From an uncultured Deinococcales bacterium (GTDB lineage: Bacteria > Deinococcota > Deinococci > Deinococcales > JAAFIG01): a stretch of DNA of 26,811 bases. Positions 1 to 26,811 of the stretch are shown in pieces. Position numbers and translations under genes: made by a program. The stretch lies in contig CAXTTL010000039.1 in assembly GCA_964247135.1 (NCBI GenBank), positions 1 to 26,811 on the forward strand, given 5' to 3'. Each line of letters opens with the position of its first letter. The stretch's first letter is position 1. The notes below the pieces were generated by a model, which saw only the letters and a list, made by a program, of their open reading frames with translations, made no database searches and was not told the origin of the DNA.

Positions 1-139
1 TCATGTTCTGGCGTTGCAAGCCGGTCCCACGGTCATCCGTTACCTGCCGCCGTTGGTCATCGAACGCGCCGACATTGACCGCGTGGTTGCCAAAACCGCC
101 GAGGTGCTCGAGAAAATCGACGGCAAAAACGCGAAATAA
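1..139 (+). CDS. lysJ: C-terminal end of a class III aminotransferase, probably [LysW]-aminoadipate semialdehyde transaminase (5'-truncated by window edge)
   Basis: Frame starting at base 2 reads [45 protein letters not shown], stop TAA 137-139. [19 protein letters not shown] matches my recollection of the Thermus/Deinococcus LysJ/ArgD C-terminus. Confidence 0.8.
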
Positions 140-158
140 AATCTGAATCACACCATTT

Positions 159-190
159 TGGGGCGCATGTCGATGCGTCCCATTGCTTTT
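159..190 (+). terminator. Hairpin after lysJ (possible intrinsic terminator or degenerate REP)
   Basis: tggggcgcat-gtcg-atgcgtccca stem (one G:U) followed by ttgctttt. Confidence 0.55.
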
Positions 191-241
191 GATGTGGCAT
201 CTGAACATGAACCCAAAATTTCCTTTGCTAGACTTCCAAGA

Positions 242-685
242 ATGAAACCGGCTCATTTCATCCTCGGCATTTTAAGCATTGCGGCTCTTGCCACCACACT
301 CAGTTCCCGTGCGTTGGCACGACCTATTTACAACGCGATCATGGAACACCAGTACGGCATTCGAGAAGACAAAAATGCCCGAGCCAGCACCTGCCTGTAC
401 TGTCACACCGACCTCGAGGGCAGCGATTGGAATCCTTTCGGGCTGCAATTGCGAAATACCTTTAAAAACGAGGGTGAAAAACGCCTTCCCGAATCGTTGT
501 ACCTGGTCTTAAAACGGGGCAAAGACTCGGACCAGGACGGTTACAAAGACGTGCTCGAGGTGTTTGCCAGAACTTTGCCAGGTGATCCTGAATCCAAACC
601 TACAGTACCCGCAGCCGAACTCGAGGCACAACTCGAGGCTGAGGGTGGCGTGGACTTGTTCAAACCCGTCATTGCGCGTCAGTAA
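242..685 (+). CDS. Secreted putative monoheme c-type cytochrome with a TSP3-like DxDxDG Ca-binding motif
   Basis: Signal peptide MKPAHFILGILSIAALATTLSSRALA, heme-binding motif CLYCH, and DSDQDGYKDVLEVFARTLPGDP. ATG 242 lies 7 nt after tgcTAGACT (leaderless-type -10). Confidence 0.7.
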   Translation: MKPAHFILGILSIAALATTLSSRALARPIYNAIMEHQYGIREDKNARASTCLYCHTDLEGSDWNPFGLQLRNTFKNEGEKRLPESLYLVLKRGKDSDQDGYKDVLEVFARTLPGDPESKPTVPAAELEAQLEAEGGVDLFKPVIARQ

Positions 686-697
686 TCCAGCGTTCAA

Positions 698-734
698 AAA
701 TCATCCCTCGAGCTGAATGCTCGAGGGATGATTT
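698..734. terminator. Perfect 16-bp hairpin with CTCGAG in both arms
   Basis: aaatcatccctcgagc-tgaat-gctcgagggatgattt just after the stop at 685. Confidence 0.8.
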
Positions 735-1146
735 CATTGGTGCATTAAGGCAAAACTCGAGAATATTTTTGGAATTCTGCTCGTCTGCATCTTCCGCGAT
801 TCAATGGTTTGAAATGTGAGCCTGAAATGTTGCTATCAAAAAAGAAGTTTGATCGGTCTCGTGTGATCAATTGTTGTGGGCGCACAATCGATTTAATGCG
901 TGTGGCTGTAAGCATTTGGTGATTCTAAAAATGTCATTCTTGTCACCAACAGTGCTAGAAGCAAACAATGTGGTTTAAAACAGTTTGCAATCTCGAGCGG
1001 GTCAAAAACCATTGAGCTATCGAATTGAAATTTGGCTTGCATCACCTCAGTGTGTTCTCAATAAGTTTATTAAAGCGATATCAATCAGGGTTATTTCAAC
1101 AACACGACCTCTCAAAAACCGACGTTACGGAAGAAAGGCTGGTTTC

Positions 1147-2409
1147 ATGAAAAGTACGATCCAATTTGAAAACAATTTCAAAAACATTGGCAAGGTTTGT
1201 TTGTTCAGTCTGACACTGCTGGGATTCAACGCTTGCAATTCGAGTCCTGCGTCAAATCAAAGCTCGAGCAACCCCACCCAGACACGAACGATGGCAATTC
1301 AGTACGCTGTGCCGGAAGCCGATGGTCAGGGGCGAAGCGTCTGGTTAGGTGGACGCTCTGTGTGGTTGGGTGGACGTTCTGCTTGGGCTGGGGGACGATC
1401 TGTCTGGCTAGGTGCAGATACCAGTATTACTCTCGCTGAAAACTACGACGCCTGGAAACAAATACACCTTGATACAGCACAGGGTCTTGCGAAAAAATTG
1501 GGTGCAGGGGTCAAGGTTGCCGTGATAGATACTGGCGTGGATTACACGCATCCTGCTTTTCAAGGTCGTATGGCAAATCCTTCCGAATGGCGCGATTTTG
1601 TTGACAATGACAACGATCCACAAGAAGTCGGTGTTGGTGGTGTGGATGCTGGTTTTGGTCATGGAACTGGTGTGGCTGGGGTGATCGCACAAATTGCCCC
1701 CAAAGCAATCATCTTACCGATTCGGGTGCTTGGACCAAATGGTTCTGGCGATGCCACTGTGGTTGCCAAAGCCATCAAGTACGCGGTCAGCGTTGGCGCT
1801 CAGATTATCAACTTGTCACTTGGAACAGCGGGCTTTGATTGTGATCTTCAGACTGTGTTATCCCAGGATGTACCCGAAGGGGTTTTTGTGGTGATGTCGG
1901 CGGGTAACAATGGCACGACAAATATTCCTTACCCAGCGGCAACAAGTAGGTACAGTCCAAATCTGTACTATAGTGCCGATCCAGCTTTGAAAGCACAAGT
2001 TCTGGCTTGCGGTGTGACCTCGAGCAGGAGTGATGCGTTAACCAATCGAACCGTTGGCGTTGGCAGTGTGAGCACCATCAATTTGGATCATAAATCAAGC
2101 TTTAGCACTTACGGAAAATATTTGGAAATGCTTGCCCCAGGTGAAGGAATCTACACGGCTGTTCCTGGTGGTTTGTTGGGTTCTTGGAGTGGAACAAGTT
2201 TTGCTGCCCCAATGGTTTCTGGAGCACTTGCCTTGGCTGCCGCCGAAACCCTGAAATCAACGGTCAGTATGCCAATGTTGGCGCGTTACGTTTCAATCAG
2301 TGCGGACAATATTGATGTTGCCAATCCTGAGTATGCTGGACTGGATTACTTGGGACTCGGACGATTAAACATCTATGCTTTCATCAAGAAAACAATCGTT
2401 CCTCAATAA
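1147..2409 (+). CDS. S8 subtilisin-like serine protease lipoprotein (subtilase 1) with 4x heptapeptide repeat before the catalytic domain
   Basis: Catalytic motifs VAVIDTG (Asp), HGTGVAG (His), GTSFAAP (Ser) and oxyanion SAGN; lipobox-like LLGFNAC. Start moved to ATG 1147 because the upstream extension of the 985 ORF looks non-coding. Confidence 0.92.
   Translation: MKSTIQFENNFKNIGKVCLFSLTLLGFNACNSSPASNQSSSNPTQTRTMAIQYAVPEADGQGRSVWLGGRSVWLGGRSAWAGGRSVWLGADTSITLAENYDAWKQIHLDTAQGLAKKLGAGVKVAVIDTGVDYTHPAFQGRMANPSEWRDFVDNDNDPQEVGVGGVDAGFGHGTGVAGVIAQIAPKAIILPIRVLGPNGSGDATVVAKAIKYAVSVGAQIINLSLGTAGFDCDLQTVLSQDVPEGVFVVMSAGNNGTTNIPYPAATSRYSPNLYYSADPALKAQVLACGVTSSRSDALTNRTVGVGSVSTINLDHKSSFSTYGKYLEMLAPGEGIYTAVPGGLLGSWSGTSFAAPMVSGALALAAAETLKSTVSMPMLARYVSISADNIDVANPEYAGLDYLGLGRLNIYAFIKKTIVPQ
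1330..1413 (+). repeat. Four tandem 21-bp coding repeats: GRSVWLG GRSVWLG GRSAWAG GRSVWLG
   Basis: gggcgaagcgtctggttaggt / ggacgctctgtgtggttgggt / ggacgttctgcttgggctggg / ggacgatctgtctggctaggt; differences are mostly synonymous. Confidence 0.95.
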
Positions 2410-2422
2410 ATAAACTGAAAAT

Positions 2423-2465: not shown

Positions 2466-2477
2466 GAGTTTGAAGAC

Positions 2478-6441: not shown

Positions 6442-6454
6442 AACTCGAGCATCA

Positions 6455-6504: not shown

Positions 6505-8286
6505 TTATTTACGCATGTTGGGTTCAAGCACGCGCTTGCGAAGGCGAATGCTTTGCGGCGTGACTTCGACCAGTTCATCGTCCGAAATGTACTCGAGTGC
6601 TTCCTCGAGGCTCATTGGACGAACTGGAGTCAAACTGACGGCATCGTCCGCGCCACTGGTGCGCATGTTGGTCAGTTTCTTGGATTTGCAAACGTTGACG
6701 TTCAAATCCCCAGCGCGTCCGTTGCTGCCGACAATCAAACCGACGTAAACCTCTGCGCCAGGTTCGATAAAGAACACGCCACGATCCTCGAGTTTCCAAA
6801 TCGCGTAAGCGAAGGCATTGCCTGGCTCCATGGCGACCAAGCTGCCGTTCTGACGGGTTTTGATCTCGCCGGCAATCGGGGCGTAACCGTCGAAGACGTG
6901 GTTCATGATGCCCTCGCCCTGGGTCATGGTCAAGAAATGCGTGCGGAAACCGAACAGGCTGCGGGCTGGAATCTTGTACTCGAGCCGCACGCGTCCGCCT
7001 TGGTTGTCCATGTTGATCATGTCGCCCTTGCGTGAACCGAGCGTTTCCATGACTGGACCCATTTTGCCTTCGGGAACGTCAATCACCAGATGCTCGTAAG
7101 GTTCGTGGTTGACACCGTCAATCATGCGGGTAATGACTTGCGGGGTGGAAACCTGCAACTCGTAACCCTCGCGGCGCATGGTTTCGATCAAAATCGAAAG
7201 GTGAAGCTCGCCGCGCCCCGAAACCACGTAATCTTCGCCTTTTTCTTCGACGCGCAAGGACACGTTGGTTTGAGCCTCTTTGAACAGACGATCCCGAATG
7301 TGACGGCTGGTGACGTACTTGCCCTCTTTGCCCGCGAATGGGCTGGTGTTCGGACCAAAGGTCATCGATACGGTTGGCTCGTCCACGGTGATGGTCGGCA
7401 AGGCTTCGGGGTCGGCAAAATCGGCAACGGTGTCGCCCACGCCAACATCCTCGAGTCCAGACAGCGCTACGATATCTCCCGCGTAAACCTCTTCAACCTC
7501 GAGCCGTTGCAAACCCATGTGGGTGAACGGTTGGGTCACTCGAGCCTTGCTGGTCGAACCGTCTTTGTGCATCAACATCACGTACTCGTTGCGTTTGACC
7601 TTGCCGCGTGTGATGCGCCCCAAGGCGATGCGCCCCAGGTAATCGGAGTAATCGAGGTTGGTCACGAGCATTTGAAACGGCTTGTCAATTTCGGTGGCTG
7701 GGGCTGGAACGTGTTTGACAATCAATTCAAACAGTTCGTCGAGGTTTTCTTTGGGGACTTTCAGGTCGGCAAATGCCTTGCCTTCACGTGCAATCGCGTA
7801 AATGATCGGAAAATCGAGTTGTTCGTCGGTCGCGCCCAAGTTCGCCATCAAATCAAACGTCAAATTGACGACTTCGGTGATGCGCTCGTCTTTGCGGTCA
7901 ATCTTGTTGATGACCACAATCGGATGCAAACCAAGCTCGAGCGCCTTTTTCAGCACGAAACGGGTTTGCGGCATTGGACCTTCGGCGGCATCCACCAACA
8001 ACAAACAACCGTCCACCATGCCGAGCACGCGTTCGACCTCGCCACCGAAATCGGCGTGACCTGGCGTGTCCATGATGTTGATCTTGATGTCGTGAAAGAG
8101 CACAGCCGTGTTTTTGGACAAAATCGTGATGCCACGTTCACGCTCGAGATCGTTCGAGTCCATGACGCGTTCGGCAACCACTTGGTTGTCCCGAAAAGTG
8201 TGCGTTTGACGAAGCATACCGTCCACCAGGGTTGTTTTACCGTGGTCAACGTGAGCGATGATGGCAATGTTCCTAAATTCCTGCAT
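6505..8286 (-). CDS. typA: Translational GTPase TypA/BipA
   Basis: MQEFRNIAIIAHVDHGKTTLVD, ERERGITI, DTPGHADFGGEVER, NKID, GRGELHL and C-terminal KKLTNMR...SLEEALEYI..DELVEVTP. Start at 8286; the ORF-track extension to 8502 is taken as leader. Confidence 0.98.
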   Translation of the reverse strand: MQEFRNIAIIAHVDHGKTTLVDGMLRQTHTFRDNQVVAERVMDSNDLERERGITILSKNTAVLFHDIKINIMDTPGHADFGGEVERVLGMVDGCLLLVDAAEGPMPQTRFVLKKALELGLHPIVVINKIDRKDERITEVVNLTFDLMANLGATDEQLDFPIIYAIAREGKAFADLKVPKENLDELFELIVKHVPAPATEIDKPFQMLVTNLDYSDYLGRIALGRITRGKVKRNEYVMLMHKDGSTSKARVTQPFTHMGLQRLEVEEVYAGDIVALSGLEDVGVGDTVADFADPEALPTITVDEPTVSMTFGPNTSPFAGKEGKYVTSRHIRDRLFKEAQTNVSLRVEEKGEDYVVSGRGELHLSILIETMRREGYELQVSTPQVITRMIDGVNHEPYEHLVIDVPEGKMGPVMETLGSRKGDMINMDNQGGRVRLEYKIPARSLFGFRTHFLTMTQGEGIMNHVFDGYAPIAGEIKTRQNGSLVAMEPGNAFAYAIWKLEDRGVFFIEPGAEVYVGLIVGSNGRAGDLNVNVCKSKKLTNMRTSGADDAVSLTPVRPMSLEEALEYISDDELVEVTPQSIRLRKRVLEPNMRK

Positions 8287-8418
8287 GAAAAACCTCGAGT
8301 CGGGCTGAGAAAGTAACAAACCCAAAAAACTCGCCCGATACTCGAGATTCGAGTTGGGCGGCGATGAAAGGCGTGAATTCTCGGGCGTGTTGGCTCGAGC
8401 GCCCGAAAGAGTGTAGCA
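8287..8418 (-). promoter_or_regulatory. typA promoter (extended -10 TGcTACACT) and structured 5' leader
   Basis: Reverse complement of 8410-8418 is tgctacact. Hairpins at 8381-8406 and 8332-8360, the latter followed on the minus strand by a U-run (A-run 8324-8329). Confidence 0.55.
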
Positions 8419-8452
8419 CGAATAACGGGGGATGAAATGGTAAAACAGGTTC

Positions 8453-9016
8453 ATGTTAACGGTTTTGCTCGTGCGCCACGCCGAACCCGTGCTTCCAGGC
8501 ACAATCGGTTTTGATGAATTCAGCCGTCCTTTGACCGAAAAGGGCGCTCGAGATGCCAGTGCTCTGGCAAAAGCGTATGGATTTCTCGAGCTTGATGCGG
8601 TGTACTCCAGTTCGATGCGCCGCGCCGTGCAAACCGTTGAGGGTTTCGCAGAAGCTCGAGGTTTAGAAGTTGTGCCAATGCCCGAATTTCAGGAGCACCT
8701 GCTCTCTCCAGAACCCATTTCAAACTGGCGCGAAGTGCTCGAGCAAGCTTGGAATGACTTTGATTTTGCGCTGCCTGGAGCTGAAACGATGCGCGGAACC
8801 CAAGCTCGAGGATTCGAGGCGCTCAACCTTTTGGCAAAGCAACACTCGAAGGGAACAATTGTGATTGGTGGTCATGGCACGATTTTTTCGTTGATCTTAA
8901 ACAAAATTGAACCACGGGTTGATTGTGCTTTTCACCTGTCCATGCCGATGCCTGCCGTTTATACGCTCAAGTTTGATGGTTGGACTTGGGAGATTATTTC
9001 AGGTGCAGGATTCTAA
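8453..9016 (+). CDS. Histidine phosphatase (phosphoglycerate mutase-like) family protein
   Basis: LLVRHAE, RPLTEKG, YSSSMRRAVQT, PGAET and GHG motifs. Confidence 0.9.
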   Translation: MLTVLLVRHAEPVLPGTIGFDEFSRPLTEKGARDASALAKAYGFLELDAVYSSSMRRAVQTVEGFAEARGLEVVPMPEFQEHLLSPEPISNWREVLEQAWNDFDFALPGAETMRGTQARGFEALNLLAKQHSKGTIVIGGHGTIFSLILNKIEPRVDCAFHLSMPMPAVYTLKFDGWTWEIISGAGF

Positions 9017-13280: not shown

Positions 13281-15044
13281 TTATTGTGTGGCAAAGACCA
13301 TCGCATCGTCAACGTAAGCCGTGCCCGCAGTGGTTCCCCAGAAATCGGCGTAAACAATGGCGCTGGTGTGGGTGGCATCGGTGGTGAAACGGGTCGAGAC
13401 CAAAGTGTACGTGCTTGGACTGTAAAGAGCACTATGGGACAAAGCGCCCATCACAAGATCAGATGTGAAATTGTAAGCACCAATCGAAACGTAGCGATTT
13501 GGGGTTGAGGTTTTGACCCAAGCCAGGTAGGTGTACGTGGTGTTTGGCAAGAGTCCGGTCAAGGTACTGGTCGCATTCTGGTCAGTTGCCGAATTCAGCA
13601 TCAAGGCACGGCTTCCGCTTCTGGCATCGGAGCTGATAATGCTCGAGTTTGTCAAATTCCAGGCGCTGCTTGGAATGGTTTCAAAACCAGGGTTTCCAAG
13701 CAAGTTGATTTGGGTGTTGGGTATTGCAAACTTTGGCAGTTTTAAGATAAAACGTTGAATTTCGAGACCACCCTTGCCATGCCCCCAAATTGGACTGGTT
13801 TGATTGGCGTAAAGTTCAGTCCAAATACGGTCTGTCTCGAGGCTGCTGCCAAACGCCGCACCCAGTTGAGGGCGGTCGGCAACATTCGCCAGTTCTGACA
13901 TTGCCAAGGCAAATGCGCCAGTCACCAGCGGTGTGGAGAAGGAAGTGCCAGTGGCATAGGTGACGCGGTTGCTCGGGTACAAGGTATAGACCTTTTCACC
14001 TGGCGCAAAGGCGTAAACCCCTTCGCCTCGAGCGCTGAAGCTCGAGATGGCGTCCTTGTCATCAATGCTGCCAATGCCGAATAGGTAGCCTGACATTGAA
14101 TCCTGCAACGAGTCTTTGGCTGGGTAATCTGCATCTTTACCATTGTTGCCGGCGGCAGCAATCACATAAACACCTTTGGTTTTGGCGTAGGCAATTTCTT
14201 GATTCAAAGAAAGATTGGTTTTCACAGAACCAAGTGAAAGGTTAATAATTTGCACTCCGTTAAGAATTGCGTAATCGATGGCTTTGACGACATCGTCAAG
14301 GTTGCCTTTGCCTGTGGGACTCAGCACCCGAAGCGGCAAAATGGTGACTTTGGGCGCAATTTGCAAAATGATTCCGCTGACCGCCGTGCCATGACCATAG
14401 GCTTTCGCCGAGTTTCCATTGATGCCTGGATCATCGTTTGGCACGGTATCATTGTCTATATAGTCGCGCCATTCGCTGCTTGGCGCGAGGTTGTTGATCA
14501 AAGCTGGGTGGCTGAGGTCTACACCGGTATCAATGACAGCCACTTTAATGCCTGCACCAAAATTTTTGGCAATGCTATGGGCTTGGGGCAAACCGATTCG
14601 TTTAAACATGTCACTGTTTTGAACGGGCAGATTTGGAATGGTCGAACCGCTGCCCAATGTGGTCCAACCACTCGCCCAGGTGGCGCTGCCACTTGCCCAC
14701 ATGTTGCTGCCACTTGCCCAGGTGGAGGTGCCCAACGCCTCTGCCTCTTCAGGGTTTGCCAGCGCGTCGATGTTGTCGCTGACACTGCGAACCTCATAAC
14801 CTTGGGTCGATTGGTTGGTGCTGACAATGGCAAAACCAGCCTCTGGATGAAAGGCATTGACCCGTCCTTGGTAGCGTTGCTCGAGTGAAGCGACGGTGTC
14901 GGTCGTGGTCAAATTAACGCTGATCACGTATTTGGCTGCTTCATTTAAATTGGTTGTAATTTCAGGTTGCGTTCCGCATGAACTCAATAACCCTGTCAGC
15001 AGGGCAAAACCAAAAATTGTTGGAACTTTGAGTTGAGGGTTCAT
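13281..15044 (-). CDS. S8 subtilisin-like serine protease lipoprotein (subtilase 2) with heptapeptide repeats and C-terminal CBM4/9-like domain
   Basis: Lipobox LLSSC; VAVIDTG, HGTAVSG, AAGN, GTSFSTP; C-terminal NLLGNPGFE...W...LLPNTTYTYLAWVK...YVDD typical of CBM_4_9-like modules. Confidence 0.92.
   Translation of the reverse strand: MNPQLKVPTIFGFALLTGLLSSCGTQPEITTNLNEAAKYVISVNLTTTDTVASLEQRYQGRVNAFHPEAGFAIVSTNQSTQGYEVRSVSDNIDALANPEEAEALGTSTWASGSNMWASGSATWASGWTTLGSGSTIPNLPVQNSDMFKRIGLPQAHSIAKNFGAGIKVAVIDTGVDLSHPALINNLAPSSEWRDYIDNDTVPNDDPGINGNSAKAYGHGTAVSGIILQIAPKVTILPLRVLSPTGKGNLDDVVKAIDYAILNGVQIINLSLGSVKTNLSLNQEIAYAKTKGVYVIAAAGNNGKDADYPAKDSLQDSMSGYLFGIGSIDDKDAISSFSARGEGVYAFAPGEKVYTLYPSNRVTYATGTSFSTPLVTGAFALAMSELANVADRPQLGAAFGSSLETDRIWTELYANQTSPIWGHGKGGLEIQRFILKLPKFAIPNTQINLLGNPGFETIPSSAWNLTNSSIISSDARSGSRALMLNSATDQNATSTLTGLLPNTTYTYLAWVKTSTPNRYVSIGAYNFTSDLVMGALSHSALYSPSTYTLVSTRFTTDATHTSAIVYADFWGTTAGTAYVDDAMVFATQ
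14649..14732 (-). repeat. Four tandem 21-bp coding repeats: GTSTWAS GSNMWAS GSATWAS GWTTLGS
   Basis: Residues 105-132 of subtilase 2, at the same position relative to the catalytic domain as the repeats in subtilase 1. Confidence 0.9.
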
Positions 15045-15308
15045 CTTAAATTGGATTTTAAACAGATCACTCTTACAAAAATCTGACAGACAAACAGCCT
15101 AAAATGTTGTCGAGCAAAGGTATTTTTGTATTTCTTAGCGATTGTAAAGCTTGGTTTAGTGATACCCAAACACAATTCTTTACCAGACCAAGTAAGGTCT
15201 CGAGCTTTGACTTTAAGGGCTTGTGTGACGTCAGTTTGGCTTTGAAATAAGACAAGACCCGATCAATCCGAGACTTGAAAACCCAATCATCTCGAGATTT
15301 GCCTCATC

Positions 15309-15344
15309 AAAAAGTACCGCTCGAGAAACTTTCTCGAGCGGTAC
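15309..15344 (-). terminator. Terminator of the GGDEF gene with CTCGAG in both arms
   Basis: gtaccgctcgagaaa-c-tttctcgagcggtac (15314-15344) with an A-run at 15309-15313. Confidence 0.8.
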
Positions 15345-15364
15345 AATCGAGGCTTTTAAAAGAC

Positions 15365-17047
15365 CTAAGCCTTGACCTTGTTTTTGCCATCATTTTTGGC
15401 TTCGTACATTCTGGCATCGGCAAGTGAAAGAAGCTTTTCAAAATCGGGTAGGCTCAGATCATCGGCTACGCCAATACTGACCGTCACCTTTAAACCTTTT
15501 GCAATCCGCGCCCAATCGTGACTTTCGATTTGCTGCCTTAAGTGCTCAGCGATGCCGTGGGCGGTTTGGGCGGTGGTTTTGGGCATGACCACCACAAACT
15601 CTTCACCCCCGTAACGGGCGGCAATGTCGGTGGTACGAATGTGGGTGCGGGTCAAATCGGTGATTTCGGTTAACACCAAATCGCCAACATGATGCGAAAA
15701 CGTGTCATTGATGCGTTTAAAGTCGTCCGCATCGAACAGCAGCACGGTCAAGGGTTCTTGACTGGATTTGGCTTCACGAAACTCCGTCTCGAGCGTGTTT
15801 TCCAGATGACGACGGTTGTACAAGCCCGTCAGCGGGTCGCGCATGGCGAGAATCTCGAGTTCTCTGGCTTGAATCTCGAGCGTCTCCAATAAATTGGCTT
15901 TCTCGAGGTTGGCTTCCTCGAGCGCCTCGAGCGCCTGAGCAAGTTCGACGTTTCGCAGGCGCTGAATTTCGGATTCGGTGCGCAACTTTTCGACCTCGTG
16001 CTGGGCGCTGAAAACCCGCAAGCGCTGCTCCATGTTTTCATCTTTCATGATCCGTTCAAGATCAAAAAAGCGTTTGAAATACAGCAAAGCCTGGTCAAAA
16101 TGCCCCGAGCGCTCAAACGCATCCGAAAGGGTGCGCTGTATTTTGGCTTCGAGCGGACGCAAACCCAGACTTTGGGCTTTTTCAAGGGCTTGACGCAGGG
16201 TTTCAAAGGCTTGACTCGAATTTCCGGTGGCAAACTCGATGATGCCTTTTTGCCACAAGCAATCGACAATTTTTTCGCGCTTGCCCGAATTCTCGAGCAA
16301 GATCAGGGCTTGATCTAAAGTCTCGAGTGCCTCATCAAAGCGTTTTAAAAATCCCAACGATTCGCCCAAATTGATCAGGTTGATCGCCTTAAAATCGCTC
16401 AAACCATGAATTTCGCACAACTCGAGGGCTTGGCGCAGGGTGCGTTCAGCCTCATCGTAACGTGACAAGCTGGCAAAACTCGATCCCATATTGCCCAGAA
16501 TCGTGGTCTCACGGATTTCATCGTGTAAAGCCCGAGCGCGCTCCAAAGCCTCATTATAGACCACCAGCGATTCCTCGTCGCGTTCGAGCTGATTGTACAG
16601 AACACCAGAATTGATCAGGCTGACCAACAAACCCTGGGTATCATTCATCAGACGGTTGAGTTCGTGGGTGCGTTGCAAATACTGGACCGCCGAATCAAGA
16701 TCACCGATGGATGCCGAAACGGCTGCCAAAAAATTCAGGCAATCGCGTTCGAGTTGTGAATTTTCGAGTTCCAAGCCAATCTCAAGACCTTCACTCAGAA
16801 TGCTAAAGGCAGCCGTGTGATCCGCGCTCGAGTAGGCACAAAATCCCAAGCCGCGCAAGGCAAATCCTCGACCCAGTTTAAAATTGATCTGATCGGCTTT
16901 CTCAAGCGCCTGACGGCTTAATTCCAGACAACGACTGCGGTCGGTCAAACGCAATTCCCACGCTTGCTCATTTAATAATGTCACTTCCTCGAGCAAGCCG
17001 CTCGAAGTGTAGGCATCGTGAAATGTGCTCAAATCAATCGTGCTCAT
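15365..17047 (-). CDS. TPR-repeat diguanylate cyclase (GGDEF)
   Basis: TPR-like repeats, coiled-coil linker, then DPLTGLYNRR, DADDFKRINDTFSHHVGD, I-site RTTD and A-site RYGGEEF; no TM segment. Confidence 0.93.
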   Translation of the reverse strand: MSTIDLSTFHDAYTSSGLLEEVTLLNEQAWELRLTDRSRCLELSRQALEKADQINFKLGRGFALRGLGFCAYSSADHTAAFSILSEGLEIGLELENSQLERDCLNFLAAVSASIGDLDSAVQYLQRTHELNRLMNDTQGLLVSLINSGVLYNQLERDEESLVVYNEALERARALHDEIRETTILGNMGSSFASLSRYDEAERTLRQALELCEIHGLSDFKAINLINLGESLGFLKRFDEALETLDQALILLENSGKREKIVDCLWQKGIIEFATGNSSQAFETLRQALEKAQSLGLRPLEAKIQRTLSDAFERSGHFDQALLYFKRFFDLERIMKDENMEQRLRVFSAQHEVEKLRTESEIQRLRNVELAQALEALEEANLEKANLLETLEIQARELEILAMRDPLTGLYNRRHLENTLETEFREAKSSQEPLTVLLFDADDFKRINDTFSHHVGDLVLTEITDLTRTHIRTTDIAARYGGEEFVVVMPKTTAQTAHGIAEHLRQQIESHDWARIAKGLKVTVSIGVADDLSLPDFEKLLSLADARMYEAKNDGKNKVKA

Positions 17048-19477: not shown

Positions 19478-19610
19478 ATTGTATACAGCGTATGAAATCT
19501 CAGGTTTTGAATTCTTGTTTATATTTTCACAAGCTTAAAAAGTGCGTGTGGTTCGGGATTCAATTGGTTTACAAGTCTTGTTATGATTGACTTGGTATAC
19601 CAAAAGTGTG
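19478..19610 (+). promoter_or_regulatory. gltB promoter region with extended -10 and GntR/FadR-like operator palindromes
   Basis: TGtTATGAT at 19579-19587; perfect palindrome TTGGTATACCAA 19592-19603; related TGTATACA 19480-19487 and ttggtttacaa 19564-19574. Confidence 0.55.
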
Positions 19611-19714
19611 TATGGTTTTGCATCAAGGCATCGTCTCAGGAGCATTCCGCTCGAGGCGATTTTTTCACAAATTGTTCCAGCCTCGAAACAATCGTGCTTC
19701 ACGGAGGGATGAAT

Positions 19715-22700
19715 ATGTCGCAACTCGAACGCAAGCGCCCCAAGAATGAAACCCTTTATCGACAAGCCGAACGTGCGCGGTTGCAACTGACCATCCCGAA
19801 TGCCCTGAACGAACCGATTGGACACGATGCCTGCGGCGTGATTGGCACAATCCGCAAAACGGGTGTTCCAACCCACGGCAACGTCAAACGGGCGCTCGAG
19901 GCACTGACCCAAATGGCGCACCGCAGCGGCGAGGTTCGTGGCGAGGGCGACGGCTGCGGCATCATGACCGACATTCCGCGAAAGCTCTGGAAAGCCTGGT
20001 TTCTCGAGGCTGGTTTGGATGTTGCCAGTGTCGATGACGCTGGGTTTTTTGTCGCGCATTACTTTATTCCGGTTTCGATCAGTCCGCGCGACGTGCTCGA
20101 TCACGTTCGCGCCCAAGGTGGCAAGTTTGGCGTGCGGGTCATGCTCGAGCGCCGTGGGCAGACGCACGGCAGCGTGCTCGGTCCTGTGGCGGCACTGACC
20201 GAACCCGTGTTTTATCAGGTGGCGGGTGTTGTGATCGGCTCGAGTGACGCCGAACGTGCCGCAAATCTGTTCAAGCTCGCGCTCGAACTTGAGAAAGCCA
20301 CACCGGTTCACGTGGTTTCGCAAAGCACGCACACCGTGGTGTACAAGGTGCGCGGCGCGGCAGACATTTTAGACCGGTATTACCCAGAGTTGCGTCGCCC
20401 CGACTTCGAGAGCGTGGCAACCATCGGGCACAACCGTTACAGCACCAACACCATGAGCACCTTCGAGCAGGTGCAGCCCTTCAGTTTGCTGGGTCACAAC
20501 GGCGAGATCAACACGATTGAACGCCTGCGCCGCGAGTGCGAGAGTTTGAACGTGCCGCTGACTGCAGGTTCGGATTCTCAAGACCTCAACCGCGTGCTCG
20601 AGGGTTTGATGCACGTTCACGGTCTGTCGTTGCTCGAGGCGCTCGAGATGTGCTGCCCGCCGGTGGTGGGGGAGATCAAGACCTTCTCGCCGGCGCTTCA
20701 GGATACCTATGTTGGTTTGCGTCAGGCGCTCGGACCACTGGCTCAAGGACCCGCCGCGCTGGTGTTACGTCACGGTGCTGAATGTGCGTTCAGCGTCGAT
20801 GCACTTGGCTTGCGCCCGTTGTGGTTTGGCGAAACCGAAAAAGAATTCTTTTGGTCGTCTGAACGCGGCGTGCTGCCTTTGGGCGCGTTCGTCAACGACC
20901 CGCGCCCACTTGCCCCAGGTGAAAAAATGGCGGTCACATTGCGTGCGGGCAACATCCAGCCGATGCCCCACCACGAGGCGCAACGCATTTTGCTCGAGCG
21001 GATTCACAACCGTCAAGCCGTGAGTTTGGGCGCTCGAGTTCATTTGGCGGGTCCGGTCATGGATGCAAAAAAACCTGTTCCAGCCGAATTTGACCGTCCA
21101 GAGCACACCAGTGGCGCGTTGACGGCGATGGGTTGGGAAAAATGGGACGAAGAGTACGTGCGGGCGCTCTCGGAGCGTGGCGTTGAGCCAATCTCGAGCC
21201 TCGGTTATGACGGTCCGATTGCGGCATTGCGTGACCCAAAGCCCAACCTTGCCGAGTTCATGAAAGAGACCGTCGCAGTCGTGACCAACCCTGCGGTGGA
21301 CCGTGAACGCGAGATCGAGCAATTTTCGACCCGTACCATCATGGGTCGCCGCGCCCTGCCGAACGGCAAACTGGGTGGTACGGTCATCGAATTGATCGCG
21401 CCAGTCATGCCGACCACCGCCGCCGTGGCATCCAAAGCGGGCACGTTGACGGTCGCGCAACTCGAGTCGCAACTGAGCAGCAAGCGCGTGGCAATGGAGC
21501 GCCTGGTCAACAACAATTTTGGCGAACCCCTCGAGAAAAGCCTTGACCGACTGCGCGAACGGGTGCTCGAGGCGGCAAAATCTGGCGCGGAATTGATCGT
21601 GCTCGAGGATTTGGGAATCTTGAAGGCGGGCAACATGCCGATTGACCCCGTGCTTGCCATCGCCGAAGCCAATAAAGCACTCGAGGCAATCTCACCGGAG
21701 GGCGTGACGTACCGCCGTCTGACCAGTTTGGTCGTCTCGAGCGGCGCAATTCGGAATTTGCATGATGTCATGATTTTGCTTGGCTTGGGTGCGGAGGCGG
21801 TCGAACCGTGGATGATGTTTGATATTTTCGCCCCTTCTGTCGAGGCTGGCGACAAATTGCTTTCGGGCTTGGTCAAAGGCATCGAAAAGGTCATGAGCAC
21901 GATGGGCATTCACGAGGTTCGCGGTTACGGGCGGGTGTTCGCCGCGATTGGTCTGAGACCAGACTTGGCAGACCGCCTGGGCGTGAAAAGTTTTCTGGCA
22001 TCCGAAAATGCTGGCTACGGACTTGCGGACCTCGAGCAGACCATGTCTGAACGCCGTCACCAATGGCAACTCGGCGCCGCCAGCCTGGCTCGAGATGCGC
22101 GACTCAACACCAGAATTTACAAACACGTTCTGGCTGCCAGCACGGGCGAAATCACCCACAGCGATTACACAGGACGGGTTCGCAGCCTCGAGCTTGATTT
22201 TCCGGTCGCAGCCCGCAATTTGCTCGAGGTCAAGGGCTTGGAGGGTCCGAGCACCGAAGACGAGATTCGCATGGCGGAAGAGATTGATATTTCGGCTGGC
22301 AAACACGCGCTGCCATTTGTGATTAGCGCCATGAGCTTCGGCTCGCAGGGCGAAACCGCCTTCCGTGCCTACCCCGAAGCCGCCAAACGCCTCGATATGG
22401 TTTCGATGAACGGCGAGGGTGGCGAGATTGCCGACATGATCGGCAAGTACGTGCGTTGGCGCGGACAACAGGTTGCCAGCGGGCGTTTTGGCGTCTCGAG
22501 CGAGATGCTGAACAGTGCCGGATTTATTGAGATCAAAATCGGTCAAGGCGCAAAACCTGGCGAGGGTGGGCATCTTCCTGGCAGCAAGGTCACGGTCAAG
22601 GTGGCTCATGCGCGTCACGCGACGCCTGGCGTGGATTTGATCTCGCCGAGCAACAACCACGACCTGTACAGCATCGAAGACTTGGCGCAATTAATTGAGG

Positions 22701-24274
22701 AACTGAAAACCATCAACCCTTACGCCAAGGTCTGCGTCAAAGTGCCAGTCGTTCCAGAAATCGGCACGATTGCCGTCGGTATCGCCAAGGCGGGCGCGAA
22801 CGTCATCACGCTCTCGGGTTTTGAGGGCGGTACGGGCGCAGCTCGAGCACATGCCTTAAAGTACGCGGGTTTCCCTGCCGAGTTGGGTTTGCGCCGTGCG
22901 CACCGTGCGCTGGTGATGGCTGGCATTCGGGACAACGTTGAACTCTGGGTGGACGGCGGCATGAAAACTGGCTTGGACGTGATCAAAATGGTCTGTCTCG
23001 GCGCGAACCGTGTGGGTTTTGGCACGGTCGCCATGAGCGCCATCGGTTGTACGATCTGTCGCGGTTGCCAACTCGACACCTGCCACGTTGGCATTGCCAC
23101 CCAGGTCGAAACCCAGGAGGAAGCCGATCACAAGGGCATGAAACGCTGGGTTCCAAGGGAACTGGATACCGCCACCGAAAACCTGGTGCGTTTTTTCAGC
23201 GGCATGGCAGCCGAGGTTCGCGCCATGATCGCCACGCTGGGTTACGAGCGCCTGCAAGACATGGTCGGGCATGTGGAACACCTGGGGCAGTTCATCCACA
23301 AAGACAAACTCGATCTGGCGTACCTGCTCGAGGCGGTCGAACCGCTGGCGCTGCCGACCCAAGCCTCGAGGGTGATTCGCAAACCACTGAACAGCCTGAC
23401 CCGAATGCTCTCGAGCTGGATCACCGAGGCGGCAGTCGGCGGTGACGAAAACCTGATGTACCAAGATGGACCCGTCGCCAGCGCCGACCGTGCGCTGGGC
23501 ACGCACCTCTCGGGTGAACTCAGCCGCCGCAAAAACGACCCGAAAATGAAACTCGGGCACGCCAAACTGTACTTTGATTCCGGCAGCATTCCAGGCAATG
23601 GACTGGGTGCATTCAACGCCCAAAACCTCGAGATTCTGGTGGACGGCGGTGCCCAAGATGGTGTCGGTAAGGGCAGCATCGACGGCAAGATTGTGATTTT
23701 AAAAGGCTTGAACGATCAGGGCACTCGGGTCGATGGCAGCGTCGGCAAGAGCTTTGGTTACGGCGCGATTGGCGGCACGTTTATTGTTCAAGGCGATGCC
23801 GACTCGAGGTTCTGCATCAGGCTTTCGGGCGCGGACGTGGTGCTCGGCGGCGAGGTCAAAAAACCGCTCGAGGACAGTCTGGGAATGCTGGCATCTCGAG
23901 CCAACGCCAAAGGTTTTGCCTTTGAATACATGACCAACGGGCGCGTGGTGGTGCTGGGCGATGCGGGTCCCTGGATTTGCTCGGGCATGACAGGCGGCGT
24001 GGTGTATTTGCGTTACAACCCCGCACTGGGCTTGGATGACACCGCGCTCGAGCGTCGTCTCGCCAAAGGGGCGCTGGTGAAAATTCATAAACTCGGGCAA
24101 AAAGGCGTGGCGGATGTCCGCGAATTGCTGGGTGAATACCACAAAGCGCTGGTTGCCAGCGAGCAGATTGAAGCCGCACGACGCGTTGCCGAATTGCTGG
24201 TAGACCCAAGCAACCATTTCAGGATGGTTATACCCGCCAATCAACAGGTGGACGCCAGCGTTTCGACAGAGTAA
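19715..24274 (+). CDS. gltB: Glutamate synthase large subunit
   Basis: HDACGV (GATase Cys), HNRYSTNT, HNGEINT, AMSFGS, QVASGRFGV, EIKIGQGAKPGEGGHLPG, an Fe-S Cys cluster and GXGXG C-terminal repeats; RBS GGAGG 19703-19707 before ATG 19715. Confidence 0.96.
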   Translation: MSQLERKRPKNETLYRQAERARLQLTIPNALNEPIGHDACGVIGTIRKTGVPTHGNVKRALEALTQMAHRSGEVRGEGDGCGIMTDIPRKLWKAWFLEAGLDVASVDDAGFFVAHYFIPVSISPRDVLDHVRAQGGKFGVRVMLERRGQTHGSVLGPVAALTEPVFYQVAGVVIGSSDAERAANLFKLALELEKATPVHVVSQSTHTVVYKVRGAADILDRYYPELRRPDFESVATIGHNRYSTNTMSTFEQVQPFSLLGHNGEINTIERLRRECESLNVPLTAGSDSQDLNRVLEGLMHVHGLSLLEALEMCCPPVVGEIKTFSPALQDTYVGLRQALGPLAQGPAALVLRHGAECAFSVDALGLRPLWFGETEKEFFWSSERGVLPLGAFVNDPRPLAPGEKMAVTLRAGNIQPMPHHEAQRILLERIHNRQAVSLGARVHLAGPVMDAKKPVPAEFDRPEHTSGALTAMGWEKWDEEYVRALSERGVEPISSLGYDGPIAALRDPKPNLAEFMKETVAVVTNPAVDREREIEQFSTRTIMGRRALPNGKLGGTVIELIAPVMPTTAAVASKAGTLTVAQLESQLSSKRVAMERLVNNNFGEPLEKSLDRLRERVLEAAKSGAELIVLEDLGILKAGNMPIDPVLAIAEANKALEAISPEGVTYRRLTSLVVSSGAIRNLHDVMILLGLGAEAVEPWMMFDIFAPSVEAGDKLLSGLVKGIEKVMSTMGIHEVRGYGRVFAAIGLRPDLADRLGVKSFLASENAGYGLADLEQTMSERRHQWQLGAASLARDARLNTRIYKHVLAASTGEITHSDYTGRVRSLELDFPVAARNLLEVKGLEGPSTEDEIRMAEEIDISAGKHALPFVISAMSFGSQGETAFRAYPEAAKRLDMVSMNGEGGEIADMIGKYVRWRGQQVASGRFGVSSEMLNSAGFIEIKIGQGAKPGEGGHLPGSKVTVKVAHARHATPGVDLISPSNNHDLYSIEDLAQLIEELKTINPYAKVCVKVPVVPEIGTIAVGIAKAGANVITLSGFEGGTGAARAHALKYAGFPAELGLRRAHRALVMAGIRDNVELWVDGGMKTGLDVIKMVCLGANRVGFGTVAMSAIGCTICRGCQLDTCHVGIATQVETQEEADHKGMKRWVPRELDTATENLVRFFSGMAAEVRAMIATLGYERLQDMVGHVEHLGQFIHKDKLDLAYLLEAVEPLALPTQASRVIRKPLNSLTRMLSSWITEAAVGGDENLMYQDGPVASADRALGTHLSGELSRRKNDPKMKLGHAKLYFDSGSIPGNGLGAFNAQNLEILVDGGAQDGVGKGSIDGKIVILKGLNDQGTRVDGSVGKSFGYGAIGGTFIVQGDADSRFCIRLSGADVVLGGEVKKPLEDSLGMLASRANAKGFAFEYMTNGRVVVLGDAGPWICSGMTGGVVYLRYNPALGLDDTALERRLAKGALVKIHKLGQKGVADVRELLGEYHKALVASEQIEAARRVAELLVDPSNHFRMVIPANQQVDASVSTE

Positions 24275-24288
24275 AACTCGAGCATCAA

Positions 24289-24336
24289 AATCCAACCTCG
24301 AGCGTGAAAGTTTTCGCTCGAGATTGGGTTGTTTTG
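24289..24336. terminator. Terminator after gltB with CTCGAG in both arms
   Basis: ccaacctcgagcg-tgaaagtttt-cgctcgagattgg followed by gttgtttt. Confidence 0.7.
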
Positions 24337-24523
24337 CCATCTGGGATTTGTCAAATTTCGAGCGACAAGCTCCTGACCCTCATCACTTGCGCCCGACCTT
24401 GCGTTAAAATGTGCCAATGAACCACAGCGACGCCCTCGGGTTTTCGCCGCAAGCCAGCACGATTCCGCCCGAACTGCCGATTGAAGCCTTGCCGTTCCTG
24501 GCGTAGGTAAATCACAAACTGCT

Positions 24524-25036
24524 TCATTTTGTTCCCAGGCTTTGACCCGTCGCGGGCGTCGCAAAGTCCAGCACCCAGTAATGCTCGATTCCCGCCGAAT
24601 CGCTGGGCACAAACACGTGACCCGCCGCAAATTGCGTGTACGCCGGATTCATGATGTTGCGGCAATGCACCGGACTCTCGAGCCACCACTTGACCGCGCT
24701 CCGAGCCGAACTGCCCAGGCGCTGACCGCCCAAAATGTTCTCGCCGACCCGAGACGCCAGATAGCCGGCATTGGCGACACGCTCCTTGACCCCGACCCCG
24801 TCCGGCGACTCGTGGGCAAAATAACCGCGCAACTGCATGTCCGCCGCATGGCTCCTGGCGGCGCGACGCAATTTAGGGTGCGGCACCAGCGGCGCGAGCG
24901 GCACGGCGCCGTAAGACTTTGACAGGCAATCAAAACCGTGCTGCCTGGCATAATTGATGCGTCCCATGACCTCGAGTTCGGCGGCTTGCCAGGGCGCGTT
25001 CAAGCCCAAAGCGGTCAGCATCAGCAGTGCCAGCAT
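24524..25036 (-). CDS. Secreted CAP/SCP domain protein
   Basis: Signal peptide; INYAR, AARSHAADM..RGYFAHESPDG, GENI, WLESPVHCRNIMNP and YWVLDF. Confidence 0.92.
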   Translation of the reverse strand: MLALLMLTALGLNAPWQAAELEVMGRINYARQHGFDCLSKSYGAVPLAPLVPHPKLRRAARSHAADMQLRGYFAHESPDGVGVKERVANAGYLASRVGENILGGQRLGSSARSAVKWWLESPVHCRNIMNPAYTQFAAGHVFVPSDSAGIEHYWVLDFATPATGQSLGTK

Positions 25037-25037
25037 G

Positions 25038-26222
25038 TCAGTTTTTCAACCTCGAGTCGTTTGGATTGACCGCGTAGACCGCACCCCAGGGTTGATAAAC
25101 GCTTTTCAGGGTTTCGGTCTTGACCTTGCCCGAAGCCGTCATGGCGATGCGCCTCGAAATCACCACGCTCATGCCCTGCTGGGCGACATCGATCAGGCGC
25201 GACGCGCCCAAACGAACTTTTGGATCGCCGCTGTAACTCGGTTGGGCGGCGGGTTTGAAATTCGTCACCACCGGACTCGAGACGCTCACTTTTCGCTCTG
25301 GCGTGCGCCCAAAGAGGTCAAACTCGAGCGTTTGAGCCTGCCCGTTCCACTGGGCTTGAATCAGCAGGGTGCCGCCGGAATCGTTTTTGAATTTCAAATT
25401 TTTCGTCGGGGCGTAGACGGTCGCCTCAAAGCCGACCGGATCGTAATAATGCACGCGGTGCGAGTGCTCATGGCGTTCGGTGATCGGCAATCCGCCGTTG
25501 AACGCCGCCCGAAACAGCGTGGCGCTGACCTGACAAAGACCGCCACCGTCCTCTTTCTCGAGCGTGCCGTTGTTGATCACAAAGCCCTCGACAAACCCCG
25601 TACCTTTATTGATGACCCCGACCGACGCGTTGAAGTCGAGTTCGGCATCAGATGCCAGGTAATCGTTGTCCAACTTTGACGCGCCGACAATGATGTTGCG
25701 CACCCGAAACGGTGGTGATCCCTTAAAACCCGAGCTGCCTCTGGCGAACAAGGTTGTGATGCCCGACTCGAACCAGTTTCGCACGTTGCGCTTGGGGGGC
25801 GTGACCTTCAAAACGACCTCGGCGCTGGAGCTTCCAGCCCGAATGGCTGCCAAAATCTGATTCCGGGTTGCTGGCTCGTTGACCGTCCAGGCGCTGCGTT
25901 GCCGCGCCACCCAATGCCCCCGCTCGAGGTTGAACCGTGCGTCCTTGCCTTCACGGCTCAGGCTTTTAAAAATATGTTTCAGCGCCGGTTCCAAACTCGA
26001 ACTGAGCTTGTCAAACTTCTGGCTGCGGGCGATCCCTCGAGCCTCCAGGACAAAAGTTTTTTTGATGATCTGCACGCCCAACTTGCCCTTTTGAATGAAC
26101 GGTTCTGAAACGCTCAGGCTCAACACGAACTGTGCCGCTGTCGGGGCTTTCGCCAGACTGAGACTCGAGACACTGAGGGCGCTGAAGCAAAGGCACAAAA
26201 GGCGTTTCATGAACTTTAGCAT
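25038..26222 (-). CDS. VanW family secreted protein
   Basis: FNASVG, GGGLCQVSATLFRAA...GLPITERHEHS, GFEATV and LKFKND; signal peptide from M at 26210; likely co-transcribed with the CAP gene (1-nt gap). Confidence 0.9.
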   Translation of the reverse strand: MLKFMKRLLCLCFSALSVSSLSLAKAPTAAQFVLSLSVSEPFIQKGKLGVQIIKKTFVLEARGIARSQKFDKLSSSLEPALKHIFKSLSREGKDARFNLERGHWVARQRSAWTVNEPATRNQILAAIRAGSSSAEVVLKVTPPKRNVRNWFESGITTLFARGSSGFKGSPPFRVRNIIVGASKLDNDYLASDAELDFNASVGVINKGTGFVEGFVINNGTLEKEDGGGLCQVSATLFRAAFNGGLPITERHEHSHRVHYYDPVGFEATVYAPTKNLKFKNDSGGTLLIQAQWNGQAQTLEFDLFGRTPERKVSVSSPVVTNFKPAAQPSYSGDPKVRLGASRLIDVAQQGMSVVISRRIAMTASGKVKTETLKSVYQPWGAVYAVNPNDSRLKN

Positions 26223-26574
26223 CCAGCTTGGGGTTGAACATCAGCCAATCGGAGGGTTGAAGCCTGGCTGAAGCTCAGCCCAGCTTGCGGTCAGCGGCTT
26301 TGAATCCTTGAAGGCGAAGGCGGAGACTTTGTACAGTCAACATTCCTGTGGACCACACGCTCGAGCGCAGCTTGAGCCATTGCCCGAATTGCTGGAAAAT
26401 GGACGCCGGCGTTTTGAAAACCTAAATCTCGAGAAAGCCCATAAATCCCGAGCGTGAATGGTGAGGCTCGAGCGTTGATGTCGCCCCTGGACGTTCGAGG
26501 GCATCATTTCGGGTTTGAAAATGAAGCCGACGTTTTGTCCGGCAATTTGCTTCACAACATTTTACTCAACTTGT

Positions 26575-26612
26575 CTCGAGCCTGACCTGCAAGTCAGGCT
26601 CGAGGTTTTTTG
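26575..26612 (+). terminator. Terminator-like hairpin with CTCGAG in both arms and no annotated upstream + strand gene
   Basis: ctcgagcctgac-ctgcaa-gtcaggctcgag followed by gtttttt. Confidence 0.65.
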
Positions 26613-26645
26613 ATGGTTTGATCGGTTTGGCGCTAGACTGTTTTT

Positions 26646-26811
26646 ATGCTCAGCGCCCGAGAGTTCAACGCAACAAAGTTGAAGCTCGAGTGTCGTTTGC
26701 TGGGTTCGCCCAAGTTGCTGCTGGATGGTCTGGAACTGGATGTCCGTTACCGCAAGGTGATTGCCTTGTTCGCCTTTTTGGCGCTCGAGGGTTTAACGCC
26801 GCGTTCTAAAC
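26646..26811 (+). CDS. N-terminus of a SARP/AfsR (BTAD) family transcriptional regulator (3'-truncated by window edge)
   Basis: Not in the ORF track. ATG 26646 gives MLSAREFNATKLKLECRLLGSPKLLLDGLELDVRYRKVIALFAFLALEGLTPRSK, matching the LLGxP...RK..AL.A.LALEG...R pattern; TAGACT 6 nt upstream. Confidence 0.8.
   Translation, partial: MLSAREFNATKLKLECRLLGSPKLLLDGLELDVRYRKVIALFAFLALEGLTPRSK

Follow-up and report, generated by a model that had tools for sequence, protein, structure and literature searches.

A 26,811-nucleotide stretch of DNA from an uncultured Deinococcales bacterium (contig CAXTTL010000039.1 of assembly GCA_964247135.1; hereafter the window) is crowded with the hexamer CTCGAG, and this raises the question of whether the word is a highly iterated palindrome of the kind known from cyanobacteria as HIP1 and what maintains it. 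The analysis below shows that CTCGAG is indeed such a palindrome in an uncultured Deinococcales family, and hence a HIP1-like word in a second phylum. The window contains exactly 178 CTCGAG sites, about one per 150 bp, the first at 107-112 and the last at 26784-26789. When the window was shuffled 100 times with its dinucleotides preserved, the mean number of sites was 5.09 (standard deviation 2.18, maximum 13) and none of the 100 shuffles reached 178, an excess of about 35-fold. With open reading frames (ORFs) used as a proxy for genes, 149 of the 178 sites lie in genes of both strands, 99 of them in the frame CTC GAG, 24 in nCT CGA Gnn and 26 in nnC TCG AGn, and the other 29 lie in the 2,859 bp of non-ORF DNA. 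A preliminary description of the window had tallied about 178 sites between 107 and 26789 and had placed them in all frames, on both strands and in intergenic DNA, and the exact count bears this out; its expectation of about seven sites was slightly high.

The window is contig C39 of an assembly (G000) of 5,091,702 bp in 386 contigs (longest 115.6 kb), with a G+C content of 52.7% and a marker-gene completeness of 84%. This metagenome-assembled genome (MAG) contains 33,925 CTCGAG sites, or 6.66 per kb (6,663 per Mb), the same density as the unstranded array in the window (107..26789) and about 25 times expectation; 4.0% of its bases lie within sites. The observed/expected ratio (O/E) was 24.8, 35.2, 14.4 and 3.45 under Markov models of order 0, 1, 2 and 3, respectively, and CTCGAG ranked first among the 4,096 hexamers under each of them. 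It is by far the commonest hexamer, and the next-ranked words are its own overlaps. The maximal-order (order-4) model gave an O/E of 1.24, which is uninformative because 88% of all CTCGA and 62% of all TCGA already lie inside CTCGAG sites. Confinement to this one contig, raised in the preliminary description as a possible sign of an artefact, was not observed: density does not fall below 2.56 sites per kb in any of the 386 contigs, and none of the 1,473 five-kb windows has fewer than eight sites (mean 33.2).

Within the genome the sites are spaced almost at random (mean 148 bp, coefficient of variation 0.96), with a deficit below ~18 bp. No two sites lie exactly 6 bp apart; such a pair would create GAGCTC, a word absent from the genome. 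The metagene profile is flat across genes at ~6.6 per kb and rises modestly in two places, to 9.4 per kb at 20-40 nt upstream of starts and to 11.7 and 10.6 per kb within 40 nt downstream of stops. An example of the latter is provided by three sites with 20-bp spacing (24277..24322) directly 3′ of the stop codon of gltB, the gene for the glutamate synthase large subunit (19583..24274, plus strand; NCBIfam NF008730, E 5.7e-202), which itself holds 31 sites. The poorest windows (C75:10001-17500, C79:1-5000 and C78:1-12500) have 1.6-2.7 sites per kb, still well above expectation, and include a conjugative type IV secretion element (VirD4/TraG-type coupling protein, TraG P-loop), a Tn7-like transposon (TnsA, Mu-type transposase, TniB) and a sugar-utilisation island of glycoside-hydrolase and ABC-transporter genes. 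The low density in these mobile elements and the island is a signature of residence time.

The result of a codon-preserving shuffle bears on whether the abundance of CTCGAG merely reflects codon choice. The gene proxy consisted of 4,560 ORFs scored by codon usage and covering 84.5% of the bases, and the DNA called non-ORF may hide some genes. CTCGAG density was 6.59 per kb in ORFs and 7.04 per kb in non-ORF DNA, where the O/E was 32. Synonymous codons were shuffled ten times within each gene, which keeps both the protein and the codon usage of the gene. The shuffled ORFs held 4,006 sites on average and never more than 4,095, whereas 28,390 were observed, leaving a 7-fold excess, and the excess was found in each frame: 17,711 observed against 3,148 for CTC GAG, 4,273 against 303 for nCT CGA Gnn, and 6,406 against 555 for nnC TCG AGn. 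The shuffle is conservative, because the codon usage that it retains is itself inflated by CTCGAG. The preliminary description had held that its reading would fall if the enrichment vanished under a shuffle of this type, and it does not vanish.

An origin in codon or Leu-Glu dipeptide bias, or in an assembly or library artefact, has in our judgement virtually no chance of being correct. The share of ORF sites in the CTC GAG frame (62%) would fit a codon bias; the excess that survives the shuffle and the enrichment of non-ORF DNA do not. An artefact is likewise refuted by the enrichment of every contig, by the orthologous positions of sites in independently assembled genomes and by the presence of the trait in 19 of 19 genomes of the family, as described below.

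The claim that Leu-Glu bias alone is insufficient was therefore sound in the preliminary description, and the direction of causation is reversed: it is the motif that inflates Leu-Glu. Leu-Glu is the most over-represented dipeptide of the proteome (22,915 observed, 9,662 expected, 2.37-fold), whereas Glu-Leu occurs 9,793 times, near that same expected number. As many as 17,711 of the 22,915 Leu-Glu pairs (77%) are spelled CTCGAG. Outside the CTCGAG context, 15% of Leu residues are encoded by CTC and 32.5% of Glu residues by GAG. The same effect is visible in typA/bipA, which carries 12 sites in the window (6505..8502, minus strand; TIGR01394, E 1e-288): at positions with in-frame sites, nearly all members of the family have Leu-Glu, whereas thirteen outgroups have it in 45 of 144 scored cells and often show a conservative neighbour (IE, LD, VE or LQ) instead. 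CTCGAG has thus shifted codon usage and raised the Leu-Glu content of the proteins.

The repeated unit is the bare hexamer. Flanking preferences in the genome are weak, with G at −1 in 39% and C at +1 in 38% of sites, and the flanks of non-ORF sites are weakly dyad-symmetric (A at −3 and T at +3, 43% each). Across the family these preferences track G+C content, and only G at −1 recurs. Of 1,048 aligned sites, 7 touch a gap, a share no higher than the background of 0.9-2.1%; because gaps are no more frequent at sites than elsewhere, the sites arose by base substitution and not by insertion of an element. An interspersed repeat resembling repetitive extragenic palindromes or miniature inverted-repeat transposable elements was considered and rejected: no longer consensus surrounds the core, the commonest 10-mer has 833 copies, and no link to insertions or deletions was found.

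To place the trait in the phylum, 251 genomes were surveyed. The preliminary description had proposed that the word be mapped across the Deinococcota; so mapped, it is a lineage trait of one family, present in all 19 genomes and five genera, with 12,028-35,442 sites per genome or ~4.3-6.8 per kb (densities that rest on rounded genome sizes). Sampled loci of five relatives gave an O/E of 14-29 at G+C contents of 42-62%. In typA, the closest genus with a name, Truepera, is 67% identical; the 16S primer pattern 515F had no match in the MAG. Outside the family the picture is mixed. CTCGAG is also the word of the XhoI/PaeR7I restriction-modification systems, and while it is enriched here, 90 of 92 sampled genomes of a Deinococcus-like genus (g7) have only 26-865 sites each (the other two have 942 and 1,010), which indicates the depletion expected from restriction avoidance. 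In a Thermus-like genus (g9), CTCGAG is about as frequent as the reversed control GAGCTC, and some genera of families f2 and f5 have 2-3.5 CTCGAG per kb.

Two genomes outside the family stand apart. G253 (family f3, genus g36) contains 24,536 sites in 3.5 Mb, and its sampled sequence has 7.5 per kb (G+C 52%, O/E 29), whereas its congener G197 contains 683 sites in 2.3 Mb (G+C 50%, O/E 1.2), a density ~25-fold lower. In the one contig tested, G253 was closer to G197 (66-71% nucleotide identity) than to the family. G253 has five C5 methyltransferases and G197 has none. The second genome, G196, has 13,562 sites, and in 69% of those sampled C precedes and G follows the hexamer, giving CCTCGAGG; its sole C5 methyltransferase (G196:C11:83962-85231) is followed directly by a gene of the Vsr type. 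With this methylase-Vsr pair, G196 may represent a related but distinct case. A scan of viral contigs for three sites within 84 bp returned mostly contigs of 60-70% G+C in which GAGCTC was often common too, a codon effect, and these were discarded.

The persistence of individual sites was then followed in alignments with related genomes. In four congeners of 84-87% identity, site hexamers were identical in 75-81% of pairwise comparisons, compared with 41-49% for other hexamers. Pooled over these four related and hence non-independent genomes, divergence at 4-fold degenerate positions was 13.8% inside sites and 35.5% outside, 2.6 times less; at the third base of GAR codons it was 11.0% inside and 28.5% outside, and in non-ORF DNA 11.9% inside and 20.5% outside. 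Over 25.7 kb of alignment, 105 of 188 sites (56%) were identical in all 5-6 congeners, compared with 4,708 of 24,709 other hexamers (19%). Xu et al. argued for selection on HIP1 from positional conservation of this kind, in the available text of their article (PMC5861425). In typA, several in-frame sites are common to the genera and others occur at partly different positions, yet in similar numbers, indicating that sites continued to be gained after the genera had split.

The gltB gene served as a conserved-gene test bed for turnover, through alignments with the congeners. At 20003..20008 (plus strand) this genome alone has CTCGAG, encoding Leu-Glu, where four congeners have ACTGAT, ACCGAC, AGTGAT and ACGGAT (Thr/Ser-Asp). 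The site thus differs by at least three base changes within 6 bp, while the 18-nt upstream flank is identical in five genomes and the downstream flank is identical to those of G003 and G004. Lineage-specific sites at least three bases away from all congeners were found at five places, namely 20003, 23154, 17975 and 11717 in the window and G000:C2:8876, and two of them (20003 and C2:8876) have near-identical flanks. Such clustered replacements of at least three bases within the hexamer account for 5 of 26 gains and 7 of 55 losses, compared with 2.8% of other lineage-specific hexamers. The numbers are small, and the replacements could reflect recombination import of unsampled alleles, rapid adjustment at the protein level after a site has been created or destroyed, or one-step events. 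Other genome-specific sites occur as well: of two gltB sites 9 bp apart (20633..20647, plus strand), the second (20642) corresponds to ATAGAA or ATCGAA (Ile-Glu) in congeners, and a site in a subtilase gene (13836..13841, minus strand) corresponds to TTCAAG in 4/4 congeners, two transitions away.

The features described above closely resemble those of HIP1 (GCGATCGC) of cyanobacteria. Both are short GC-rich palindromes that rank as the top over-represented word, occur in all frames as well as in and between genes, are conserved at orthologous positions and extend through a lineage. HIP1 is reported to exceed expectation 15- to 300-fold and to be conserved both inside ORFs and between them (PMC5861425), and HIP sites to occur at ~500-2,500 per Mb (PMC4390886); the 6,663 per Mb of CTCGAG lie above that range. 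HIP1 differs further in being an octamer of cyanobacteria, whereas CTCGAG is a hexamer of another phylum, and in being accompanied by conserved orphan methyltransferases (GATC, CGATCG), whereas none was found family-wide for CTCGAG. A further counterpart is GGCGCC, the alternate HIP of Calothrix PCC 7103, which is likewise a bare palindromic hexamer that serves as the dominant word, in place of HIP1, in a genome that avoids related restriction-type sites (PMC4390886); G000, too, strongly avoids other palindromes. That case comprises Calothrix PCC 7103 and a 19-kb sample of a second Calothrix strain and has a matching GrCGyC methyltransferase, according to the available text of the same article; CTCGAG, by contrast, spans a 19-genome family and one genome outside it, has a measured effect on the proteome, and has no matching enzyme identified. 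A literature search found no description of CTCGAG hyper-abundance or of a HIP-type word in Deinococcota, although the supplementary tables of Elhai 2015 may list further words.

Taken together, we are almost certain that a DNA-level force acts on an exact 6-bp word that is equally dense in and between genes in every sampled member of the family, that its sites arise by substitution and persist 2-3 times better than neutral sequence, and that the force has shaped the proteome. The interpretation offered in the preliminary description, that of a HIP1-like palindrome, is upheld by its top rank, its presence in all frames, its conservation and its lineage-wide spread; of the three mechanisms that it proposed (repair or recombination coupled to methylation, a bias in DNA uptake, or a site for a nucleoid protein), none is singled out.

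As to what the force might be, our best guess, which is held tentatively and by analogy, is that a lineage-specific protein system recognizes the exact dyad-symmetric hexamer, which would serve as a HIP1-like mark of self-DNA in exchange or recombination. DNA carrying CTCGAG would be preferentially taken up, recombined or repaired; through such a preference the word would spread as a molecular drive and would then be retained by selection, and the sites may or may not be methylated. This role is ranked first because HIP1 has been linked to methylation-dependent transformation, according to the available text of one article (PMC13756078). It is possible, but on the whole doubtful, that the system is a transferable one for self-recognition, acting in uptake, recombination or repair, that was gained at least two times in Deinococcota, once in the 19-genome family and once in G253 but not G197, with a drive that rewrites conserved enzymes. 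If so, the change of Thr-Asp to Leu-Glu in gltB by at least three clustered changes would be an instance of that drive rewriting a conserved enzyme, the word would be an independent counterpart of HIP1 in a second phylum, and G253 and G197 would form a natural presence/absence pair in which to find the agent.

Several observations weigh against a self-DNA mark. Uptake sequences, such as the DNA uptake sequences of Neisseria and the uptake signal sequences of Pasteurellaceae, are lineage-specific words that occur in all frames and between genes, can bias peptides and often stand behind genes; the known ones are 9-12 nt long, non-palindromic and present at ~1 per kb. CTCGAG resembles them in its modest enrichment after stop codons and in one hairpin with the motif in both arms, but differs in that it is palindromic, has exactly 6 nt with weakly conserved flanks and reaches 6.66 per kb; no receptor was identified. 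The spacing of sites in G000 gives no sign of selection for even distribution. The sites are also retained less strongly than an equilibrium would require. With the hexamer shared by all other genomes taken as the ancestral state, sites were lost in 55 of 619 lineages (8.9%) and other hexamers had changed in 5,391 of 30,441 (17.7%), so that loss is only 2-fold lower. Neighbours one base away from CTCGAG became sites in 2 of 130 lineages, and gain was not detectably raised; for transition neighbours the figure was 2 of 65, compared with a background of 1.9%, which is not significant. On terminal branches, 55 losses exceed 26 gains in the 25.7-kb alignment (30 and 21 in the window alone). By our calculation, a 25-fold excess at equilibrium needs roughly 8-fold slower loss together with 3-fold faster gain. 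The shortfall points to a stronger force in the past, unless the small sample is misleading, and the process acting on CTCGAG may be weaker now than it was. Finally, no agent gene was found: of the methyltransferase classes screened across the family, none is present in every genome, and the co-distributed orphan methyltransferase suggested in the preliminary description did not emerge.

The same counts are what one would expect if the sites were relics of a strong ancestral drive that are now partly protected and slowly eroding, with no dedicated function at present. The surplus of losses, the roughly 2-fold slower loss with no measurable rise in gain, and the failure to find a conserved agent would all fit such a history. 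It is nevertheless very unlikely in our view, since all 19 genomes in five genera still hold ~4.3-6.8 sites per kb, the partly different positions of sites in different genera require gain after the genera split, and silent positions inside sites are clearly constrained now. In addition, a 20-kb region without a match at E 1e-100 or better in five congeners (G000:C1:1-20000) still holds 116 CTCGAG (5.8 per kb).

Repair offers another route to an abundant word. In Escherichia coli, very-short-patch repair by Dcm/Vsr raises the frequency of CCWGG, and the effect is small. Repair tied to a methylated site can in this way raise the frequency of that site, and CTCGAG could be a neutral by-product of such methylation-coupled short-patch repair (Dcm/Vsr- or Elhai-type), in which a methyltransferase and a mismatch nuclease or glycosylase acting at T:G would enrich a word that has no function of its own. 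This is Elhai's model for HIP sites (PMC4390886). We consider it unlikely here. The commonest differences at sites are transitions of the central CpG, with CTTGAG/CTCAAG making up 48 of the listed variants and TTCGAG/CTCGAA 34; CTCGAG is reported as an m5C target in Halorubrum (PMC8112702) and as methylated in bins of a hot-spring metagenome (10.64898/2026.06.24.734251), in the available text of both sources. The T-variants, however, should be drained by the repair, yet variants one base away are not depleted (O/E 1.77 for TTCGAG, 1.41 for CCCGAG and 1.16 for CTTGAG), and the transition variants, which are the commonest at their positions, look like a halo of decay products. The gain of sites from such variants was not raised, as stated above, and the 25-fold excess of CTCGAG contrasts with the small effect of Dcm/Vsr.

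The enzymes that such repair would need were searched for in the genomes, with the reservation that the MAGs are incomplete and that methyltransferase specificities are not readable from sequence, so that not found is not the same as absent. C5 methyltransferases (PF00145) are present in 17 of 18 relatives, in favour of repair, whereas no match was found in G008, which is 91% complete and has 21,883 sites. Clustered at 45% identity, the 29 C5 enzymes compared formed 20 groups, and no group extended across the family. The juxtaposition of a C5 methyltransferase with a Vsr gene in G196 would be the expected arrangement; Vsr (PF03852) was found only there, and not in the trait-bearing genomes G000, G009, G011 and G253. 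PF01555 had no match in the single-contig family genome G011 nor in G015, and PF02086 and PF02384 were screened in G000 only. Nucleases of the XhoI family (PF04555) were not found in G000, G009, G011, G020, G024 or G028, which is weak evidence, as 14 control genomes were also silent.

Individual candidates were also set aside. Of twelve ~500-aa proteins with PF07669 that were examined, eleven are HsdM subunits of type I systems and one, in G009, is type II-like. A 466-aa type II methyltransferase of G000 with an adjacent type II nuclease (C4) and a 1,499-aa methyltransferase-SNF2 fusion (C112) each occur in 6 of 18 relatives and are accessory. A regular-expression screen of the 4,560 proxy ORFs for motifs of N6/N4 methyltransferases returned nine ORFs, four of them already known; of the five new ones, four are unrelated enzymes or a TPR regulator, and one 404-aa ORF has no family or structure match.

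G000 encodes many methyltransferases; those identified either have a partner nuclease that fits a different word, one that the genome avoids, or are of type I or MmeI-like. Several palindromes are nearly absent from this genome (GAGCTC 0, GGGCCC 1, CGGCCG 3, AGGCCT 4, CGTACG 5, GGATCC 7, CCGCGG 11, CAGCTG 15), and GGCC is found just 380 times (O/E 0.02). The pairs comprise an NgoPII-like nuclease with a C5 methyltransferase for GGCC, an Eco29kI-like nuclease with a C5 methyltransferase for CCGCGG, a PvuII-like nuclease with an N4/N6 methyltransferase for CAGCTG, and a SacI-like nuclease with a D12-class methyltransferase for GAGCTC, whose degenerate form GRGCYC occurs 0-6 times. MvaI/BcnI-like and NotI-like pairs, a further type II pair, a type I system and two MmeI-like enzymes are also present. 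The loci tied to palindrome avoidance and restriction-modification are on C320, C14, C178, C36, C189, C207 and C4.

The even coverage of the genome also admits a structural explanation, in which CTCGAG is the binding site of an abundant nucleoid-organising or chromosome-architecture protein and is selected for its density along the chromosome. We regard this as quite unlikely. The uniform density, with at least eight sites in each of the 1,473 five-kb windows, and the equal density in and between genes are consistent with it, and the exclusion of sites closer than ~18 bp is what a footprint would give; the weak dyad symmetry of the non-ORF flanks (A at −3, T at +3) points the same way. Such a role was favoured for HIP1 by Xu et al., who also reported a periodic distribution at 10-90 kb, in the available text of their article (Xu et al. 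2018, PMC5861425). On the other hand, the flanks follow the G+C content of each genome, with only G at −1 kept across the family, no candidate protein was found, and the spacing of CTCGAG shows no short-range periodicity other than a period of 3 bp, with no helical period. A mark of self-DNA in exchange or recombination remains our tentative preference.

Other features of the window are given for completeness. A cluster of three sites (15291..15350, unstranded) occupies the gap between the ORFs at 13281-15044 and 15365-17047. Within it, at 15309-15350, lies a perfect 12-bp inverted repeat, GTACCGCTCGAG / CTCGAGCGGTAC, with a 7-nt loop and CTCGAG in both arms, an example of how paired sites can, as judged from the sequence, build hairpins. 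A 408-aa open frame (7090-8316, plus strand) runs antisense within typA (6505-8502, minus strand), and further long antisense ORFs overlap gltB; these frames are most likely shadow frames and not genes. The window also encodes two mycosin-like subtilases (985-2409, plus strand, and 13281-15044, minus strand), a TPR-HD-GYP-type protein (2716-4725, plus strand) and a TPR-GGDEF diguanylate cyclase (15365-17047, minus strand). Pairs of a subtilase and a TPR-HD protein of similar kind recur in the genome (C5, C109 and C78).

A force acting at the DNA level that sets ~4% of the bases and one dipeptide distorts analyses of codon usage, k-mer binning and protein evolution in these MAGs. To our knowledge, the function of HIP1 has been debated for three decades and studied only in cyanobacteria. 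CTCGAG provides a second, independent system in another phylum for that question, with a different word at a several-fold higher density, and is of interest for work on the evolution of genome words, HIP1, uptake sequences and restriction-modification. It also comes with natural contrasts: the trait runs through an entire family, the word is for the most part depleted in a Deinococcus-like genus, and of two congeners one has it and the other lacks it. With these contrasts it can be tested by comparison whether words of this kind depend on methylation, on DNA exchange or on chromosome structure.

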